64,000 nucleotides of DNA from an uncultured delta proteobacterium (GTDB taxonomy: Bacteria > Desulfobacterota > SM23-61): NCBI GenBank assembly GCA_963760605.1, contig CAVXFA010000040.1, positions 16,970-80,969 of the forward strand, in the 5' to 3' direction. The position numbers and the translations under genes were made by a program. Under the pieces are notes generated by a model, which worked only from the letters and a program-made list of their open reading frames with translations, ran no database searches and had not been told where the DNA came from. Shown in pieces: positions 6,842 through 14,794 of this stretch. Position 1 is the stretch's first letter. Every line of letters starts with the position of its first letter.

Positions 6842-8236
6842 TCAGGATTCCTGGAAGGTTTTCTCCAAAATCTCCAAGGCCATGTCGATCTCCCGCTGGC
6901 GGACATCCAGAGGCGGGAGGAAGCGGATGACCTTATACCCACAGCCCAGGAGTAAAAGGCCGCGGTCCAATGCTCTGCGCAGGATCCGGTCCCGCCTCTC
7001 CGATCCATCGATTTCGATGCCATCCATCAGGCCGATGCCCCGCACATCCAAGATGAAGGGGTATCTCCTCTGCAGCCTCCTGAGTTGGCCTAAAAAGTAA
7101 TTTCCCTGGCGGGTGGCATTGTCCAGCAGATTTTCCTTCTGGATGACTTCGATAATTGTGTAGCCGATGGCCGAGCTTAGAGCATTCCCTTCCCCCCAAG
7201 TGCTGGAGATGCGGTATTCCAGCTGGGGAAAGAGCTCTGTTTTACCCAGGGTAGCGCCCACGCGAAGAGACTTGGCGACGGTGATGATGTCCGGCTGAAT
7301 GCCAAAGTGCTCAATGGCCCACCATTTTCCGGTTCGACCCAATCCGGTCTGAATCTCGTCGGCGATCAGGGGAATAGAATATTTTTTCGCCAGACGTTCT
7401 ACTTCTCTCATGAACTCTAGGCTGGGAACGTTATAGCCACCTTCTCCTTGGATGGGCTCGAGGATGATAAAGGCCACTTCTCCCGGGTCCACCAGGCCGA
7501 TGTCCGGGTCCAGATAATGATCCAACCGGCTGCGTATCCCTTCCTTTCCCGTACAGCAAACCATCCAGCCGCAGTTACAGGGATGGTCCCGACAGGTGCA
7601 GAAAGGGAAGTCCGCGATGTTGGGGATTTGGGGAAACCAGTCCCGCTGGATCCTCTTGCTGCGGTTGAGGGAAAGCGCACCTAACGTACGGCCATGGAAA
7701 GCCCCATAGAAACAGATGCCATAGCCATAATTCTTTTTGTGGTCATAGCAAATTTTTATAGCATTCTCCACCGCCTCAGCCCCGGAGCTGGTGAAGAAGG
7801 CTGAGCCGAATCCAAACTGGGAGGTAATTTCCATCAGTTTGTAATGAAGGTGCGATGGCGTGGGGATCTCCGATTTTTCCGGGTCTTCCCCCCAGGCGCC
7901 GATAAAGTCGCATCCGGCATACCGGTCAGGGTCGACGCCTTGGAGCTGGGCGGCCCTGCGTACCAGAGCAGGGTGGTTGTAGCCCAGGGCTGAGCTTCCG
8001 ACGTGCGAGACAAAATCCAAGATCACGTTTCCGTCCACGTCCGTGCAGAAGGGCCCGATGGCCGGTTGGGATCGGTCCCAAATGAATCCTTCATGATAGG
8101 TGGAACGGGCGGCATACCGGCGATGGAATTCAGCCCACTTGCGGGCATTAGGGCCGGGGGGTGGGGTCTTGATTTTTACGAAAGCTGTGTCTCTCTCCAT
8201 GGACTTCGACTCCTCAGATTCAGGTTGAAGGGCCAA
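6842..8236 (-). CDS. Class III (PLP-dependent) aminotransferase with a Cys-rich insertion
   Basis: 464 aa; class-III AT blocks (GSAFFTSSGAEAVENAIK, FHGRT, ILEPIQGEGG, ADEIQTGLGRTGKWWA, TVAKSL). An extra segment of about 40 aa containing FCTCRDHPCNCGWMVCC lies between the FHGRT and EPIQGEGG blocks. Confidence 0.8.
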   Translation of the reverse strand: MALQPESEESKSMERDTAFVKIKTPPPGPNARKWAEFHRRYAARSTYHEGFIWDRSQPAIGPFCTDVDGNVILDFVSHVGSSALGYNHPALVRRAAQLQGVDPDRYAGCDFIGAWGEDPEKSEIPTPSHLHYKLMEITSQFGFGSAFFTSSGAEAVENAIKICYDHKKNYGYGICFYGAFHGRTLGALSLNRSKRIQRDWFPQIPNIADFPFCTCRDHPCNCGWMVCCTGKEGIRSRLDHYLDPDIGLVDPGEVAFIILEPIQGEGGYNVPSLEFMREVERLAKKYSIPLIADEIQTGLGRTGKWWAIEHFGIQPDIITVAKSLRVGATLGKTELFPQLEYRISSTWGEGNALSSAIGYTIIEVIQKENLLDNATRQGNYFLGQLRRLQRRYPFILDVRGIGLMDGIEIDGSERRDRILRRALDRGLLLLGCGYKVIRFLPPLDVRQREIDMALEILEKTFQES

Positions 8237-8520
8237 AAAATACTAACAGCCAAGGGCGGTGTTTGTCAAATTTAGACCCCCCCAGGCCGGACCCCGATCA
8301 CCAGGCGATGAGGGGGGTGGCCTGCGCGGGAGGCTGATGCTCCCTCGTTCATCGGCCTCCTACCTCGACCAGGAGGGAATTTCTCCAAAAAGCGAAGGGG
8401 GCAAGTTTGTGAATGGGGAAAGGGGGTCAAAAAGGGGCAATTGTAATAAAGTATTTCGTTGCTCTTCTCACTCAGATTCATTTCCATGATTTCAACTCTT
8501 TTAGAAAAATCCTTATCTCG

Positions 8521-8830
8521 CTAGAGGAGGTTTTCGACCTTTTTTATCCCTAAACTAATGGTCATCGGCTCGCGCTTAAAATGCTGCGCAATTTCTTTGA
8601 CCCCGAACCCTGCCAACTTCCTTGCCAGATACGCTGCCAGGTTACGACCATAAGCTTCCTGGCGGTCACGGCCGGTCAATAAAACGAGACCGATCTTGGT
8701 CATCTTCAAGAATCGCCGCCTTGTTGATTCCCCGCACCATAATATGGTGAAGGGCGCCAGGGACGTAAGGCGAAATCAGAGAGATGAGCTTCGGTCCCTG
8801 CTTGGGGCGGTGCCGAGCGCTTTCATTTTG
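8521..8830 (-). pseudogene. Remnant of an IS200/IS605-like (REP-associated tyrosine transposase-type) transposase gene
   Basis: The 62-aa track ORF matches the DnaA-like HTH C-terminus seen in these transposases. Manual translation just upstream (8740-8830, minus) gives the HUH-transposase N-terminal motif PGALHHIMVRGINKAAI. The middle of the gene is missing. Confidence 0.5.
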
Positions 8831-8913
8831 GACTTTTTTCTGATATAAATGTTTCAGAAAACGGATACCAATCGAAGCAATACGGATAGTTCTGTTTTGA
8901 AGGGAGAAGGAAA

Positions 8914-9105
8914 ATGTCTACATTCCAGGAACAGTTTGTTGTGGACCCGAAGGGGAAGAAAACCGGCGTGATTCTTCCTCTGGCCCGTTATCGGAAACTT
9001 ATGGAAGATTTGCACGACCTCGCGGTTGTCGCCGAACGTCGGGACGAAAAACCGATTCCATTTGAAGAACTAAAACGGCGGTTGAAAAGGAATGGCCTCC
9101 TATAA
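8914..9105 (+). CDS. Type II antitoxin (Phd/YefM or RelB-like)
   Basis: 63 aa; overlaps the downstream RelE-family toxin gene by 14 nt; typical TA architecture. Confidence 0.65.
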   Translation: MSTFQEQFVVDPKGKKTGVILPLARYRKLMEDLHDLAVVAERRDEKPIPFEELKRRLKRNGLL

Positions 9106-9355
9106 CATCGTTTTCAAACCATCGGTTGAAAAAGATCTACGCTCTCTGCCTAAATCGGTGATCGCCCGGGTCTTAAGACAGATTGAGGCTCTGAGGGAGA
9201 ATCCATTTCCGCGTCAGTCCGTAAAGTTGGCTGGCGCGGAACAGCTTTACCGAATACGCGTCGGGGACTATCGCGTCGTCTACGCGGTGGATAAAGAGGC
9301 GCAAGAGATTATAGTTCAATACATCCGGCATCGCCGAGAAGTTTATCGCGGATAA
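9092..9355 (+). CDS. RelE/ParE-family type II toxin
   Basis: 87 aa; RelE/ParE-like ending (RIRVGDYRVVYAVDKEAQEIIVQYIRHRREVY). Confidence 0.8.
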   Translation: MASYNIVFKPSVEKDLRSLPKSVIARVLRQIEALRENPFPRQSVKLAGAEQLYRIRVGDYRVVYAVDKEAQEIIVQYIRHRREVYRG

Positions 9356-9616
9356 TAGAAAACCTTCCGAACCATATATGGCGTCTCCATGATCGTTTTC
9401 TGATCAGAGCTGCTATATTCTAATTCAAGCATTGCTGCCAGGCAACGAAAATGTGGTGCTACGCTAAAGCCTCCGCTACTACCTCGGTGATATCCATAAC
9501 CTTCAGCGACCTTTTCTTTTCTCTTCGGATTCGGGCAGCCGCTTCTTGAAGGCTTGATTCGCATGAGGGGCAAGCGGACAAAAAGCCAAGAAAGGCAAGT
9601 CTGTGATACCTCTGCG

Positions 9617-9686
9617 CAAATTTCTTTGACACACAATTGCCTTTCTTGTATATTTAACCCACCCAAAAGCGAGTTCTTATCAATTC
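9617..9686 (+). promoter_or_regulatory. Promoter-operator module, copy 1: TTGACA-N17-TATATT followed by the 31-bp box TTAACCCACCCAAAAGCGAGTTCTTATCAAT
   Basis: Near-consensus sigma70 hexamers with 17-bp spacing read directly from the sequence; the same module recurs at 12233-12340. Confidence 0.5.
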
Positions 9687-9774
9687 GATCGAGAAGAATG
9701 GGGAGGGCTATGACATCCGGCACGTTTTCTGGGTGGAAACGATCCTGCGGCGAACCCGCTGGGAGATGGAAGCC

Positions 9775-11067
9775 ATGAAGAAGGTGCTCAGGCCCCGAAT
9801 CGTCCTCTTGCTGGTTGCGGGGATGCTATCGACTCAGGCCTGTCGGGCGCTGGCCGATACAGGGAGTCGATTGCCCGGCACTGTTGACATACGCTGGAAC
9901 GGCCACTTCGTTGAGGTGATCAAGGAGTTCAACGATTCCACCCATCGGGAGATGGGGTCGCTTTACACCCAAGAGCTGCTCCGGTTGTTCCCCAGCCTGG
10001 AGACTGACTATGATGCATCCATTGCCAGCAGCATGGACAGGCAGACCTACGATGATCGTATGGAGAAGCTTCAATATTTGAAGCCCCAGGTTCCGGAAGA
10101 GTATCGGGAGGAAATCGAGGGTATGGCCTCTTCCTTCTCGGGGGGCACCCAGAATGTCCCAGGCGATGGCAAGCTCTCGATCGATGAGCTCTATTACGTC
10201 AACCTATACATAGACTTGATTATGGCAGGGGCGTGCTCTGCCATCTCGGTGTACGGGCCCCTCTCCTCCAGTGGGAAGAATATCGTCGCCAGGCTGGTGG
10301 ACTGGTATCCCAGAAGGGATAATGCGGTTTTCACCATCAGGAATGGAAAGAGATCCTTCGGGAATATTGGCCGTCTTTTGAGCGTCATGGCGGGAACGGC
10401 ATTCAATGAGGACGGAGTATTCGCAGCTCTTTTGGCGGCCGATCCCACTCGGCCAGTGGATGTTCAATCCGGACCGTACCGGTCCGTCACGATGGATATC
10501 CGATACGCCCTCGAGAATTTCAGCAACCTGGAAGAGGTGGCGGATTTCCTGCGTAGCCAGAAATACATCTTCAGCCACCAGGTCTTCCTCGCTGATGCCG
10601 AGAAAAGTGCAGTCCTGGAAAACAACCTTCTGGAAGGAGGGATGCGTGCCCTCCGACATGCGAATTCCGAGCTCGGCGACGGCGTGGATTGGGGATTCTC
10701 TCACGCCGTTGCCGCAGTGAACACCTTCTTTCTTGAGGGCAATTACCGCGGGGATGGAGTGGATCCGAGATGGATCCACATCAGAAACCAGCTTGCCGGG
10801 AAACTAAGGAATTCTGAGCGTGGGGAAGTGGGGCAGGTCACCTTCAACGAGCTGAAGGAAATCGCGACATACTACCATCGAGGCGACCCCAGGAATTCTC
10901 CCGGCTCATCCACCGGAGACATCTATAACTCGATGACTCAGCATATTGTCCTTTTTGAACCGGATACCCTTCATCTTGAAGTATTCTTTCGTGAGGCCAG
11001 CCCGCTTCCCGTCAGGCATCCTGCATTCACGGCGATCCCCATCTCCTTCTCCCACTCAAGAGATTAA
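9775..11067 (+). CDS. Secreted Ntn-hydrolase-like protein (peptidase C45/acyl-CoA:6-APA acyltransferase-like)
   Basis: Signal-peptide-like start MKKVLRPRIVLLLVAGMLSTQA. Internal Gly/Ala-Cys junction (MAGACSAISVYG) is reminiscent of the autoproteolytic N-terminal-Cys site of C45-family enzymes. Assignment is tentative. Confidence 0.4.
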   Translation: MKKVLRPRIVLLLVAGMLSTQACRALADTGSRLPGTVDIRWNGHFVEVIKEFNDSTHREMGSLYTQELLRLFPSLETDYDASIASSMDRQTYDDRMEKLQYLKPQVPEEYREEIEGMASSFSGGTQNVPGDGKLSIDELYYVNLYIDLIMAGACSAISVYGPLSSSGKNIVARLVDWYPRRDNAVFTIRNGKRSFGNIGRLLSVMAGTAFNEDGVFAALLAADPTRPVDVQSGPYRSVTMDIRYALENFSNLEEVADFLRSQKYIFSHQVFLADAEKSAVLENNLLEGGMRALRHANSELGDGVDWGFSHAVAAVNTFFLEGNYRGDGVDPRWIHIRNQLAGKLRNSERGEVGQVTFNELKEIATYYHRGDPRNSPGSSTGDIYNSMTQHIVLFEPDTLHLEVFFREASPLPVRHPAFTAIPISFSHSRD

Positions 11068-11233
11068 GCACAGGCTCCAGGGACTCCCAGGGGGGCAAAA
11101 GCGGGCTCAGGTTCTCGTTTTCCATTGACTCGCATGTAAGTGCTGATGTAAAAGACTCAAGGCGAAGGATGAGCGGAGCAATGCCCGACTTCCCGGGCTC
11201 GTCCCAAATCAATTCCGCGGAGAGTCATTCCCT

Positions 11234-12022
11234 TTGAAGGAGATGGCCATGGAGATCAGACCCAACCTATTCGACCTGAGCGGGCGCGTTGCGATCGTAA
11301 CGGGTGCCGCCTCTGGCCTCGGAGAGGCCATAGCGTATGGCCTGGCTGTATTTGGAGCGGACATCCTGGCAGTGGATATCGAAGCTGATGGACTCAAGCA
11401 GGTGAGCCAGAAGGTAAAGGGGGTGGGTCGAAGGGCGTTACCCGTCACCTGTGATGTGCGGTCCGCCGAAGAGATACGATCGATGGTGACGAAATGCCTG
11501 GATTCCTTCGGCAGGATCGATATCCTGGTGAACAATGCCGGTATTTCGCGAAGGGCCCCGGCAGAAGAGATGACCCGCGACATGTGGGACGACGTCCTTG
11601 CGGTGGACCTGACAGGCCCATTTCTCTGCTCCCAGGAAGTCGGGCGAGTGATGATCCGACAGGGTGGCGGGAGGATCATCAATATGGCCTCTGTGGCGGG
11701 GATCGTCGGCCTCAAGACGGGAAACGCAAACTACTGTGCCGCAAAAGGCGGACTCGTCTCAATGACCCGGGCCCTGGCGCTCGAGTGGGCCAAGCACAAT
11801 GTCCTCGTCAATGCCATCGCACCCACCCATATCCGCACCCCCCTCATCGAAGCACTTCTCAGCGACCCTGCCAAGAAGGCTTATTTCCTCGGCAACGTCC
11901 CGCTGGGCCGGCTGGGTGAGGTCAGCGAGATCGTCGGGCCGGTGGTATTCCTGGCCTCTGATGCTGCCACCCTGGTCACGGGAACAGTGTTGTGCGTGGA
12001 CGGCGGGCACACGGCCCAATAA
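11234..12022 (+). CDS. Short-chain dehydrogenase/reductase (SDR) family oxidoreductase
   Basis: 262 aa; TGAASGLG Rossmann motif, NNAG, catalytic YxxxK (YCAAKGG). Confidence 0.9.
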   Translation: MKEMAMEIRPNLFDLSGRVAIVTGAASGLGEAIAYGLAVFGADILAVDIEADGLKQVSQKVKGVGRRALPVTCDVRSAEEIRSMVTKCLDSFGRIDILVNNAGISRRAPAEEMTRDMWDDVLAVDLTGPFLCSQEVGRVMIRQGGGRIINMASVAGIVGLKTGNANYCAAKGGLVSMTRALALEWAKHNVLVNAIAPTHIRTPLIEALLSDPAKKAYFLGNVPLGRLGEVSEIVGPVVFLASDAATLVTGTVLCVDGGHTAQ

Positions 12023-12232
12023 GCATGGGTTGATCTGGCCTCCGCTTGATCTCGATGGGTCGGCGAATCGAACTGGAATCCCTTCCCATGATCTATCTCG
12101 AAAACAAGAAAGGAGGACATTTTGCCAAAACACCCTGGGGTCTATAGGGCCGAAAAGCGGCGGAAAGAGCTATCCCGCCAGAAGAAGCAGGAAGAGAGGA
12201 GACAGCGGCGGTTAAAGATCTTGTGCCAACAT

Positions 12233-12340
12233 TTCCTTGACACACAATTGCCTTTTTTGCATATTTAACCCACCCAAAAGCGAATTCTTATCAATAATTC
12301 AATTCAATTAACCCACCTAAAAGCGAATTCTTATCAATCA
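12233..12340 (+). promoter_or_regulatory. Promoter-operator module, copy 2 (TTGACA-N17-CATATT) with two tandem copies of the 31-bp TTAACCCACCYAAAAGCGARTTCTTATCAAT box
   Basis: Direct comparison with 9617-9686. A second TTGACA-N17-TATTTT and a GGGAGG RBS follow before the ferredoxin start at 12424. Confidence 0.5.
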
Positions 12341-12423
12341 ATGGTCTGTGAATCCTTGACATGGACTGAATAAAATTGTATTTTTTCTGATGTTCACGGA
12401 TTTTTAAGGGTAGGGAGGAAAAT

Positions 12424-12963
12424 ATGTCTTGGAAACTGGCCGTTGTGCCTGAACGCTGTTCTGGATGCAAGATTTGTGAACTGGTCTGCTCCATCGAACG
12501 TTTTGGAGTGAACAACCCAAAGAAGAGCGCGATTCAAGTGATGGTGGTCTATCCCCACCCGATCATAAGAATGCCGATCGTCTGCCGACAATGCAAGGTG
12601 GCCAAATGCATGGAGAACTGCCCGACGGGCGCCATTGCGACGAAAGACGGGATCTATGACATCGACGGGGAGAAATGTATCTCCTGCCAGCAGTGTGTCA
12701 TCTCCTGTCCCTTTGGGGCCATCTACCTCCACGACGAGATTGAGACACCCTTCAAATGCAATCTCTGTAACGGGTCACCCCGCTGTGTGGAGGCCTGCCC
12801 CAAAAATGCCCTTCTGTTTCTTCCGGATCACGTTCTCGGTCAGACCCAGAGGATGGCAAGTGTGTTGAAATACGGGCACATGAAAGAAGTGGAATACGTT
12901 GAAAAAGGAGAAAGGAAGGTTCTGAGATATGCCGACATCGAAAAGGGAAAAGCGGAAGATTAA
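12424..12963 (+). CDS. 4Fe-4S dicluster ferredoxin-domain protein (electron-transfer partner of AOR)
   Basis: 179 aa with four CxxCxxCxxxCP-type cluster motifs; overlaps and precedes the AOR gene. Confidence 0.85.
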   Translation: MSWKLAVVPERCSGCKICELVCSIERFGVNNPKKSAIQVMVVYPHPIIRMPIVCRQCKVAKCMENCPTGAIATKDGIYDIDGEKCISCQQCVISCPFGAIYLHDEIETPFKCNLCNGSPRCVEACPKNALLFLPDHVLGQTQRMASVLKYGHMKEVEYVEKGERKVLRYADIEKGKAED

Positions 12964-14794
12964 GGGTGGATATTTCTGGAAGATCCTCTGGGTTGACCTC
13001 GATCGGGAAGAGGCAAAACCACTCGAATTTGATGAATCCTTTGCTGCCAAGTATATCGGCGGAAGGGGATTTGGGGCCAAACTGGTCTGGGATAACCTTC
13101 GGCAAAAAGGAAGCGTTGATCCTCTCGGTCCTGAAAACCTTCTAGCCATCTCCCCGGGACCCCTGGCCGGTCTTTATCTTCCCGCCTCCGGAAAGACCTC
13201 CTTTATTTCGATCTCTCCGGAGACCAGGATTTACGGGGATTCAAGCATGGGCGGCTCCTTTGGTACCGAGCTCCGCCAGGCCGGTATCGATGCCCTGGCC
13301 ATTACGGGGAAGGCGAAGACCCTCTCCTATCTCTGGATCGACAACGAATCGGCGAGAATCATGCCCAACGAGAAATTGAAAGGAAAGGGGAGCTTAGAAG
13401 CCGAGGGATTGATTAAGGAAGAACTGAAGGACCAACATATTAAAGTGGCGACCATCGGCGTCGCCGGGGAGAATCGAGTCAAATTTGCCTGCGTCAGCTC
13501 AGATTGGGGGAGAAATTCCGGAAGGACGGGCATTGGCGCAGTCCTGGGATCGAAAAATCTTAAGGCCATTGCCGTCCGGGGTTCTCATGATCTCCCGGTC
13601 TTCGATCTCCCCAGGTTGCGGAAGGTATCCGATGCTTCCTTCCGCAGTCTGAGAGAGAACAAGAATCTGCCTTTCTGGCAGGAGCAGGGTCTGATGTCGG
13701 TTATCGACTATGTCAATGAGGCTGGAGTGATGCCGACCTATAACTTCAAGGAAGGCGTCTTCGAAGACGCGAAGAAGATCAATGGATACGAGATGCTCTC
13801 CAGATACAAGATTGGCGATACGGCCTGCTTTGCCTGCCCCATGGCCTGTGGAAACGTCTGTTTGGTGAAGGAAGGCAAATACCGCGGCACGGTCGTCGAA
13901 GGACCGGAATATGAGACGGCCTGTATGTTTGGCTCGAATATCGGAGTCAGCAACTTTGCGGCCATTGTCAAGGCCAACCAGCTCTGCGACGAACTTGGAT
14001 TGGACACGATCTCTGCGGGAAACCTGATCGGGGTCATGATGGAAGCGATCGAAACCGGCCTCCTCTCGGAAAAGGACCTCGATGGTCTCCCGCTCAAATG
14101 GGGAAATGAAGAAGCGATCATCGAAACCCTTCATCGGATCGCCCATCGCAAGGGCATCGGGAACATCCTCGCCGAGGGCACTCCGGGAGTGACCAAACAG
14201 TGGCCTCAGCTTCGACCGATCATTTCCCAGGTAAAAGGATTGGAGCAATCTGCTTATGATGCGAGAATTGCCATTTCCATGGCGCTGGGATACGCCACCT
14301 CCGATATCGGAGCCCACCATGCCCGAGCCTGGACCATTGCGAAGGAACTGGAGATGGGGATGGATTGGCCTCTCGAAAAGAAGGCCGACCTGGTGATCTA
14401 TCATCAAACGCTGCGGCCTCTCTTCGATATGCTCGGGGTCTGCCGGCTGCCCTGGATCGAACTCGGTTTTGATCAGAACAATTATGCGGAATATTATTCG
14501 GCGGTCACCGGCATAGAAACGACATTGGACCAACTCCTCCAGCGCTCTGCGGATCTCTACGACCTTACCCGGGCAATTAATATGAGATTAGGCATCTCCC
14601 GAAAAGATGACTATCCACCCGTGAGGGTCTTCGATTTACCGATGACGGAAGGACCTCATGCCGGAAAGATATTGAAGCGCGAGGATTACGAAATGATTCT
14701 CGACATCTACTATCAGAAGCGAGGCTGGACGAAGGACGGGCAGGTCCCGGATGAAAAGATCACCAAGTTCAATGATGCGCTGGTTACAGGATAG
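12929..14794 (+). CDS. Tungsten-containing aldehyde:ferredoxin oxidoreductase (AOR family)
   Basis: 621 aa; AOR N-terminal pattern GYFWKILWVDL; exact start codon uncertain (overlaps the ferredoxin gene). Confidence 0.85.
   Translation: MPTSKREKRKIKGGYFWKILWVDLDREEAKPLEFDESFAAKYIGGRGFGAKLVWDNLRQKGSVDPLGPENLLAISPGPLAGLYLPASGKTSFISISPETRIYGDSSMGGSFGTELRQAGIDALAITGKAKTLSYLWIDNESARIMPNEKLKGKGSLEAEGLIKEELKDQHIKVATIGVAGENRVKFACVSSDWGRNSGRTGIGAVLGSKNLKAIAVRGSHDLPVFDLPRLRKVSDASFRSLRENKNLPFWQEQGLMSVIDYVNEAGVMPTYNFKEGVFEDAKKINGYEMLSRYKIGDTACFACPMACGNVCLVKEGKYRGTVVEGPEYETACMFGSNIGVSNFAAIVKANQLCDELGLDTISAGNLIGVMMEAIETGLLSEKDLDGLPLKWGNEEAIIETLHRIAHRKGIGNILAEGTPGVTKQWPQLRPIISQVKGLEQSAYDARIAISMALGYATSDIGAHHARAWTIAKELEMGMDWPLEKKADLVIYHQTLRPLFDMLGVCRLPWIELGFDQNNYAEYYSAVTGIETTLDQLLQRSADLYDLTRAINMRLGISRKDDYPPVRVFDLPMTEGPHAGKILKREDYEMILDIYYQKRGWTKDGQVPDEKITKFNDALVTG

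Follow-up and report, generated by a model that had tools for sequence, protein, structure and literature searches.

The question raised by the 64,000-nucleotide (nt) stretch of contig CAVXFA010000040.1 from an uncultured delta proteobacterium (hereafter, the window) is why a near-consensus promoter joined to a 31-nt box should stand before two different transcription units, one with a C45-like gene and an SDR gene and the other encoding a ferredoxin and an aldehyde:ferredoxin oxidoreductase (AOR). An initial annotation had proposed a shared cis-regulatory module for a single regulator, a miniature repeat that propagates a promoter, or the boundaries of a 2.6-kb insertion. Comparison of the unit with its copies in other genomes and metagenomes makes it highly probable that promoter plus box is the terminal segment of the right end (the oriIS side, downstream of tnpA) of an uncharacterized IS91-family rolling-circle insertion sequence (IS). 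This IS is common in sediment Thermodesulfobacteriota/Syntrophaceae, and the repeats of the window would be transposon-borne portable promoter stumps, not the operators of a regulon.

The promoter-box unit and its link to IS91-family transposases

A repeat search of the window identified a direct repeat of 72 nt (90% identical) at 9613-9684 and 12224-12295, in agreement with the promoter-plus-box module that had been described before the two transcription units, the coordinates of which were a few bases off. The 31-nt box, TTAACCCACCYAAAAGCGARTTCTTATCAAT, lies at 9654-9684, 12265-12295, and 12308-12338, the last of these being the promoter-less third copy that had also been reported; no further box with up to three mismatches is present in the 64 kb besides those three (0 expected, 100 shuffles), and the start of box 3 follows that of box 2 by 43 nt. 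The promoter part of the repeat (9626-9654 and 12237-12265) is likewise not expected by chance (0 expected). A third promoter-like site, unrelated to the repeat, was found between box 3 and the ATG of the ferredoxin gene, and is probably the own promoter of the ferredoxin-AOR operon. The features of the modules are as follows (L-numbers denote contigs compared with the window):

9580-9605 (-): 26-nt inverted partial copy of the copy-1 promoter spacer (81% complementary), 24 nt upstream of it (repeat search; also in L038)
9610-9684 (+): module copy 1, a putative 5'-truncated solo end (oriIS side) of ~75 nt, similar to other copies from about -48 to the box end
9626-9654 (+): predicted outward sigma-70-type promoter of copy 1, TTGACA-17-TATATT (pattern search; 11/12 in a consensus scan)
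9654-9684 (+): terminal box of copy 1, the putative extreme terminus of the element, where similarity between copies ends, with the predicted transcription start inside
12215-12295 (+): module copy 2, a putative 5'-truncated solo end of ~80 nt, similar to other copies from about -54
12237-12265 (+): predicted outward promoter of copy 2, TTGACA-17-CATATT (pattern search; 10/12 in a consensus scan)
12265-12295 (+): terminal box of copy 2 (box search)
12296-12341 (+): nested terminal duplications, a 43-nt unit that ends in box 3 (12308-12338) and then the 4-nt unit TCAA (12338-12341)
12356-12384 (+): proximal promoter-like site of the ferredoxin-AOR operon, TTGACA-17-TATTTT, outside the repeat (consensus scan; kept in L066, L067, and L069)

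The 72-nt unit is not one of the miniature inverted-repeat transposable elements, as its ends are not inverted repeats and its 5' ends are ragged. The 26-nt inverted pairing at copy 1 (9580-9605 with 9630-9655, around a 24-nt loop) takes in the spacer and the -10 hexamer, and could be either a fold-back scar of truncation or a hairpin that occludes the promoter.

Outside the window, species-representative genomes scanned with the box core yielded matches in three metagenome-assembled genomes (MAGs; Syntrophaceae/'delta proteobacterium'), and a separate metagenome scan found the box in 54 contigs, mostly from sediments, several of which carry 2-3 copies. The general unit reads TTGACAcACAA, 17-18 nt, TATAyT, 4-5 nt, CCACCnAAAAGCGAGTTCTTATCA, in a register that is fixed in nearly all copies, and a relaxed pattern placed a -35-like hexamer in position at 54 of the 65 boxes. 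Across 46 copies in the same register, conservation reaches ~2 bits per position in the -35 region (CTTGACACACAA), the -10 hexamer, and the box, is far lower in the spacer than in the hexamers, and falls to ~0 right after TTATCA(A/G/C). Divergent copies still keep AAAAGCGAGTTCTTATCA; the profile used left out the 3' half of the box. On the basis of this conservation and register we predict a transcription start inside the box, which would make the box the first ~25 nt of the transcript rather than an upstream operator. The genes downstream of the copies are unrelated to each other, and in L002 the module faces a convergent gene.

Two individual matches deserve mention. The only match in a viral contig (L058) was rejected as a chance 17-mer in a coding region, lacking both the promoter and CCACC. 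In L020 (oriented positions 126-330), the module adjoins what is left of a histidine-kinase gene, a truncated C-terminal part (HATPase end). It exemplifies a solo end that interrupts, and possibly re-promotes, a gene remnant and the following response-regulator gene.

An all-against-all BLAST of the copies, each with 450 nt of upstream sequence, delimited the unit on both sides. Among non-orthologous copies, the 3' limit of similarity always falls at +24 to +30, i.e., at the box end, and the 5' reach varies (-48 in window copy 1, -54 in copy 2, and -66, -79, -110, -124, -145, -160, -200, -221, -250, -310, and -360 elsewhere). The longer copies run upstream into the C-terminus of an IS91-family (Y2/HUH) transposase. 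A frameshifted gene upstream of the module in L039 matches Pfam Y2_Tnp (PF04986, E=8.5e-12), and transposase relics were recognized upstream of the module in L002, L012, L014, L027, L034, L049, L054, and L069; the relic '...DPDYPWDAY*' is found in L002, L012, L014/L023, L027, and L049/L057, and the relic '...ILKHLGLWLVKPKPPPRAN' in L027, L034, L039, and L054.

In an independent test, transposase homologues were retrieved with a protein fragment alone, without use of the DNA motif. Three full-length homologues, P0010, P0070, and P0084 (62-71% mutual identity), all carry a co-diverged promoter and box 170-220 nt past the stop codon on the same strand, and it is this result that identifies the module as the probable oriIS-side terminus. 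The same distance from the transposase stop codon (170-220 nt) is seen in L039, L059, L060-62, and L063-65. The transposase combines a zinc-binding N-terminal domain (PF14319) with the Y2 domain (PF04986). Positions 3575-4924 of L060 form an uninterrupted open reading frame (ORF) of 449 amino acids with zinc-binding, HUH (NPHCHVL), and Y2 parts, which was also called as the 449 amino acid protein P0222, and in L063-65 the transposase is split into Zn_Tnp_IS91 (146 amino acids) and Y2_Tnp (302 amino acids). The NCBIfam IS91 model matched at E~1e-28, a match that stays under the model's cutoff on account of partial or split ORFs.

Two diverged IS copies with 62% identical transposases, in L063 and L060, lie directly after a dnaE2 3' end (regions 447-3509 of L063 and 3346-3582 of L060); L063 has a full imuB-dnaE2 cassette and L060 only a 78-codon 3' fragment of dnaE2. 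The dnaE2 sequence beside the IS looks like upstream DNA co-mobilized by one-ended transposition. The same context puts tnpA downstream of an SOS-type mutagenesis operon.

The two ends of IS91-family elements differ: oriIS, on the right, lies downstream of tnpA, and the other is terIS. For transposition of IS91, 82 bp at the extremity of its right end are enough, and termination failure, or one-ended transposition, mobilizes neighboring DNA (PMC13181058). The elements described here share with IS91, IS801, and IS1294 a zinc-binding plus Y2 transposase, two distinct ends, the lack of terminal inverted repeats, a conserved right end downstream of tnpA, seemingly co-mobilized upstream DNA (the dnaE2 3' fragment of L060), and module-segment-module structures compatible with one-ended transposition. 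They differ in a terminal sequence that is unrelated to known family ends, with no evident CTTG/GTTC, and in the nested terminal micro-duplications carried by 26% of the copies.

In ISCR1, the oriIS region (232 bp) harbors outward POUT promoters, which raise downstream expression 13-15 fold beside the own promoters of the genes (PMC6218425). A comparable layout was found here at the sequence level, intact elements included: a sigma-70-type outward promoter lies within ~200 nt of non-coding DNA between the transposase stop and the oriIS-side end, co-oriented with variable downstream genes, and may act in tandem with the own promoter of an operon. In contrast to ISCR1 (PCR1-1/PCR1-2), where the hexamers are TAAACG/TAAGAT, there is here a single predicted promoter much nearer to consensus (TTGACA-17-TATAyT), and its predicted start lies inside the terminal box; moreover, the hosts are anaerobic sediment Thermodesulfobacteriota and not clinical gammaproteobacteria, and there is no integron association. 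Truncated ISCR2-type remnants are likewise 5'-truncated and keep the ori-side end beside passenger genes; they usually span hundreds of bases and include part of the transposase gene, whereas the series described here extends down to 72, 43, and 4-10 nt.

Putative mobile promoters were defined by an identity of no less than 80% over 50 nt or more before non-homologous genes in one genome, and are common to several taxa, but the mechanism of their mobilization was left as 'still unknown' (Matus-Garcia, Nijveen & van Passel 2012). The pair in the window, 90% identical over 72 nt and located before the C45-like gene and before ferredoxin-AOR, belongs in this class, with the difference that the source element can be named. 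The idea of a miniature repeat that propagates a promoter was essentially right, and its source can now be given as an IS91-family end.

Breakpoints at the box end and nested terminal duplications

Contigs that share a locus with each other or with the window break at the ends of the module. L063 and L064 represent the same locus (imuB-dnaE2, then the IS), to which L064 adds 1.33 kb carrying a radical-SAM gene. On both sides of this insert stand the last 428 nt of the IS, as a direct repeat that comprises the transposase 3' end and the module, and the novel joint follows right after ...TTATCATCTCATC, that is, after the box stutter. The module-segment-module layout is common to L064 and the window.

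Among the relatives of the window itself, L038 is 97% identical over 9536-12299, has a single box, and diverges directly past the copy-2 box. The flanks of L067 are 98.6% identical, but an IS relic reaching to about -130 replaces the small ORF of the window, and its boxes are 35 nt apart versus 43 nt. L066 is 97% identical in ferredoxin-AOR and has a TPR gene upstream; there an IS relic is joined straight to the proximal promoter without a box, and the 5' end of L066 has a 43-nt unit whose start falls within the spacer. L069 is 96% identical in the C45/SDR region and shows the same rsmI-M16 synteny downstream, in the order [transposase C-terminal relic plus module]-leader-SDR-[module]-thi genes, while its C45-like homologue (95% identical) is located elsewhere, without a module. 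From this comparison, the copy-1 orthologue of L069 still reveals its transposase ancestry, and the window copy has lost everything upstream of -48.

The proposal that the modules mark the boundaries of a 2.6-kb insertion stands in part. Synteny places breakpoints exactly at module ends in the relatives (L038, L066, L067, and L069), and L064 offers an independent insertion of the form module-1.33 kb-module. The modules of L069, however, flank the SDR gene alone, with the C45-like gene elsewhere, so that the 2.6 kb are not one simple insertion, and the G+C profile of 9.7-12.2 kb shows no anomaly and no foreign-DNA signature.

The proximal ferredoxin promoter (window 12350-12400) is 94% identical to L069 12474-12524, where it precedes cutA1-rsmI, and no ferredoxin-AOR genes were called at that locus; the ferredoxin-AOR pair may be an insertion between the proximal promoter and rsmI. 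The last ~75 nt of the C45-like region (window 11034-11108) occur twice in L069 (2403-2477 and 9260-9334), once behind the C45 gene and once before SDR, immediately past the copy-1 leader, which points to the C45 gene having been translocated or deleted between these lineages. The locus of the window is a rearrangement hot spot between strains.

Beyond the terminus of the box repeat, the copies often repeat their own last bases. The sequences that follow are TCAA, ATCAA, TATCAA, TTATCAA, and TTCTTATCAA, all of which end at the same terminal position, and the units follow the local variant of the box (TATCAG in L020, TATCAC in L040, and TATCCA in L003). At least one perfect unit of 4-10 nt abuts the end in 17 of the 65 distinct copies (26%), compared with 0.49 on average and 4 at most in shuffles. 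Long nested units were also found, of 35 nt in L067, 39 nt in L045, and 43 nt in L066 and in the window, where box 3 is such a 43-nt nested terminal duplication. We know of no previous description of nested terminal micro-duplications for IS91.

The promoter-less boxes of 35-43 nt are the long end of the 4-10-nt series, which the solo ends of 72-430 nt continue. This continuum of sizes fits best with the repeated addition of 5'-truncated ends beside one already present, with a possible contribution of slippage, or of decay plus recombination. If the terminal micro-duplications are made by the transposase, they would represent a new footprint of HUH/Y2 transposition.

Alternative explanations

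The shared cis-regulatory module of the initial annotation implies that the box is an operator for one host transcription factor, e.g., a tungstate/molybdate regulator of the TunR/ModE type, which co-regulates C45/SDR and ferredoxin-AOR. The overlap of the box with the predicted transcription start is indeed the classical position of a repressor site, two tandem boxes precede the tungsten-enzyme operon, and a protein that binds the box, whether encoded by the IS or by the host, may exist. A regulon is nevertheless very unlikely, since the box has no internal or dyad symmetry, keeps a single orientation and a single register relative to one particular promoter (4-5 nt past the -10 hexamer), with which it travels as one piece, and is contiguous with IS91 transposase 3' ends, the unit being an IS91-family end at dozens of loci with unrelated and even convergent downstream genes (L002). 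Its spacing also differs by strain (35, 39, or 43 nt, or a lone box), and no regulator gene lies near the modules. There is a still slimmer chance that a structured cis-regulatory RNA, a riboswitch or small RNA gene, starts at the box. The presence of a conserved transcribed segment behind a strong promoter would suit such an RNA, as would L002, where the convergent gene permits only a short transcript; yet conservation ends ~25-30 nt past the start, the folding energy of the box is 0 kcal/mol, and z-scores of 0.06 and 0.98 were obtained for the leaders. Rfam returned only two tRNAs for the whole window at the gathering threshold, and nothing relevant, even at E<5, when 8200-12500 and L001-L003 were searched at E-value thresholds.

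A host element that was targeted or captured by the IS, such as a promoter/leader cassette, is also unlikely as the origin of the module. One candidate was an antitermination leader of the boxA-like Nus type (GTTCTTATCAAT, against GCTCTTTAACAAT in E. coli); the likeness of GTTCTTATCAA to boxA is loose. Such an origin would agree with the sequence-specific targets used by IS91-family elements (PMC13181058) and with the landing of new insertions directly past existing ends (L064). It predicts, however, one fixed junction between IS and module, whereas similarity fades at many points from -48 to -360; in L064, the transposase 3' end and the module were duplicated as one piece, and each of three diverged transposase lineages has its own co-diverged module. 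The box RNA is, in addition, unstructured, the leaders fold no better than shuffles, and no Rfam match was obtained. As for a simple local segmental duplication of no wider meaning, which the initial annotation had set, together with absence of the box elsewhere, against its own proposal, it could be suspected from the confinement of the only three copies in 64 kb to 2.7 kb, but we give it practically no credence: the box is widespread (3 MAGs and 54 metagenome contigs), and these 57 other contigs come from many samples and lineages, with differing gene contexts.

Several observations weigh against the assignment of the module to an IS91-family end. The window contains no transposase gene or relic by tblastn, and the link rests on homology to copies elsewhere. 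The left (terIS) end and the target sequence could not be defined, and the classic CTTG/GTTC target tetranucleotide is not evident beside the ori end, where the next bases are T and then T/G/A; GTTC (variants ATTC, CTTC, TTTC) occurs 7 nt inside the conserved end, and this lineage may use another target or a different exact cleavage point. The subterminal palindromes are weak (CAAGATCTTG / CCAyATGTTGyGG at about -58 to -45, with CAAGATCTTG at about -58 to -49 in one subfamily), the upstream one is absent from window copy 1, and an alignment fold of 35 diverse modules on both strands gave no consensus hairpin; a small TTG-ACACA-CAA palindrome is present at the -35 region. Several full-length copies are frameshifted (L063, L039), which makes the present activity of the family uncertain, and both promoter activity and start site are predictions. 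Finally, the first downstream ORF is co-directional in 37 cases and opposed in 15, from crude ORF calls on non-independent contigs, a bias that lends weak support to retention of the promoter where it is useful.

Genes around the modules and proposed mechanism

The genes next to the modules (C45-like, SDR, ferredoxin, and AOR) are as the initial annotation described them:

9766-11067 (+): secreted C45/AAT-like gene, 3' of copy 1 (weak Pfam AAT match)
11243-12022 (+): SDR gene, with a module on either side in the window and in L069
12424-12963 (+): 2x[4Fe-4S] ferredoxin gene, 3' of copies 2-3
12929-14794 (+): tungsten-type AOR gene, 3' of copies 2-3

An exact look-up of the AOR and SDR proteins of the window returned no record, whereas that of the ferredoxin succeeded. 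The leader after copy 1 contains an upstream ORF (uORF) of 22 codons (9710-9778, +) with its own GGAGG, which is kept in L038 and has a counterpart in L069 that is fused to the region upstream of SDR. The TGA of the uORF overlaps the ATG of the C45-like gene (9775) as ATGA, which suggests that both are translationally coupled.

Before copies 2-3, a small ORF (12122-12267, +) that has a strong Shine-Dalgarno sequence (aaggagg-N6-TTG) codes for a highly basic peptide of 48 amino acids, MPKHPGVYRAEKRRKELSRQKKQEERRQRRLKILCQHFLDTQLPFLHI, for which a Pfam search gave no match. This ORF crosses the copy-2 promoter and its stop is the TAA of the box. We considered whether the repeat might be a conserved coding C-terminus and rejected it, as the ORF stops before the promoter in L038 (KIL*) and is replaced by an IS relic in L067. 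On the other side of the locus, the ~1.4 kb at 8237-9612, which separate copy 1 from the aminotransferase gene (6845-8236, minus strand), have no ORF of more than 90 amino acids, no Rfam match, and a slightly lower G+C content (0.49), and may be a decayed gene or untranslated DNA.

If the module does represent an IS91-family oriIS-side end, its outward promoter would fire, by analogy with POUT and given its near-consensus hexamers, and transcribe the C45-like gene and SDR from copy 1. Copy 2 would add, in tandem, to the own promoter of the ferredoxin-AOR operon at 12356-12384, much as POUT does in ISCR1. That the box is strongly conserved between diverged transposase lineages suggests its recognition or cleavage by the HUH transposase. 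The outward promoter would, in a circular or tandem intermediate, read across the ori-ter junction into tnpA; the left ends of the elements in the compared contigs leave little room for a tnpA promoter. Solo ends and micro-duplications could arise from truncated ends that insert beside existing ends, or from decay and recombination between ends.

A bolder version of this mechanism, possible but rather doubtful, holds that the solo ends are live products of abortive rolling-circle transposition, 5'-truncated in the manner of long interspersed nuclear elements and with a preference for sites beside an existing end. A transposase acting in trans would then spread a consensus promoter and build module-gene-module arrays such as those of the window and L064, and the nested duplications of 4-43 nt would be its footprints. 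If true, this would amount to an integron-like system for gene capture and expression driven by an HUH enzyme.

The outward promoter of the IS91/ISCR ori-side end, truncated ori-side remnants, and 'putative mobile promoters' are already known. This family, a consensus promoter with its start in the terminal box, and the nested micro-duplications appear to be undescribed so far, and none of the papers searched has the box sequence in a relevant context. For annotation, dozens of identical 'operators' in Syntrophaceae/Thermodesulfobacteriota should not be taken as a regulon. The ferredoxin-AOR operon and the C45-like/SDR genes of this organism may be driven or boosted by transposon-derived promoters, and for at least one family of 'mobile promoters' the analysis offers a concrete mechanism, in which short stumps of an IS91-family ori-side end, with its consensus promoter, stay behind or are spread.

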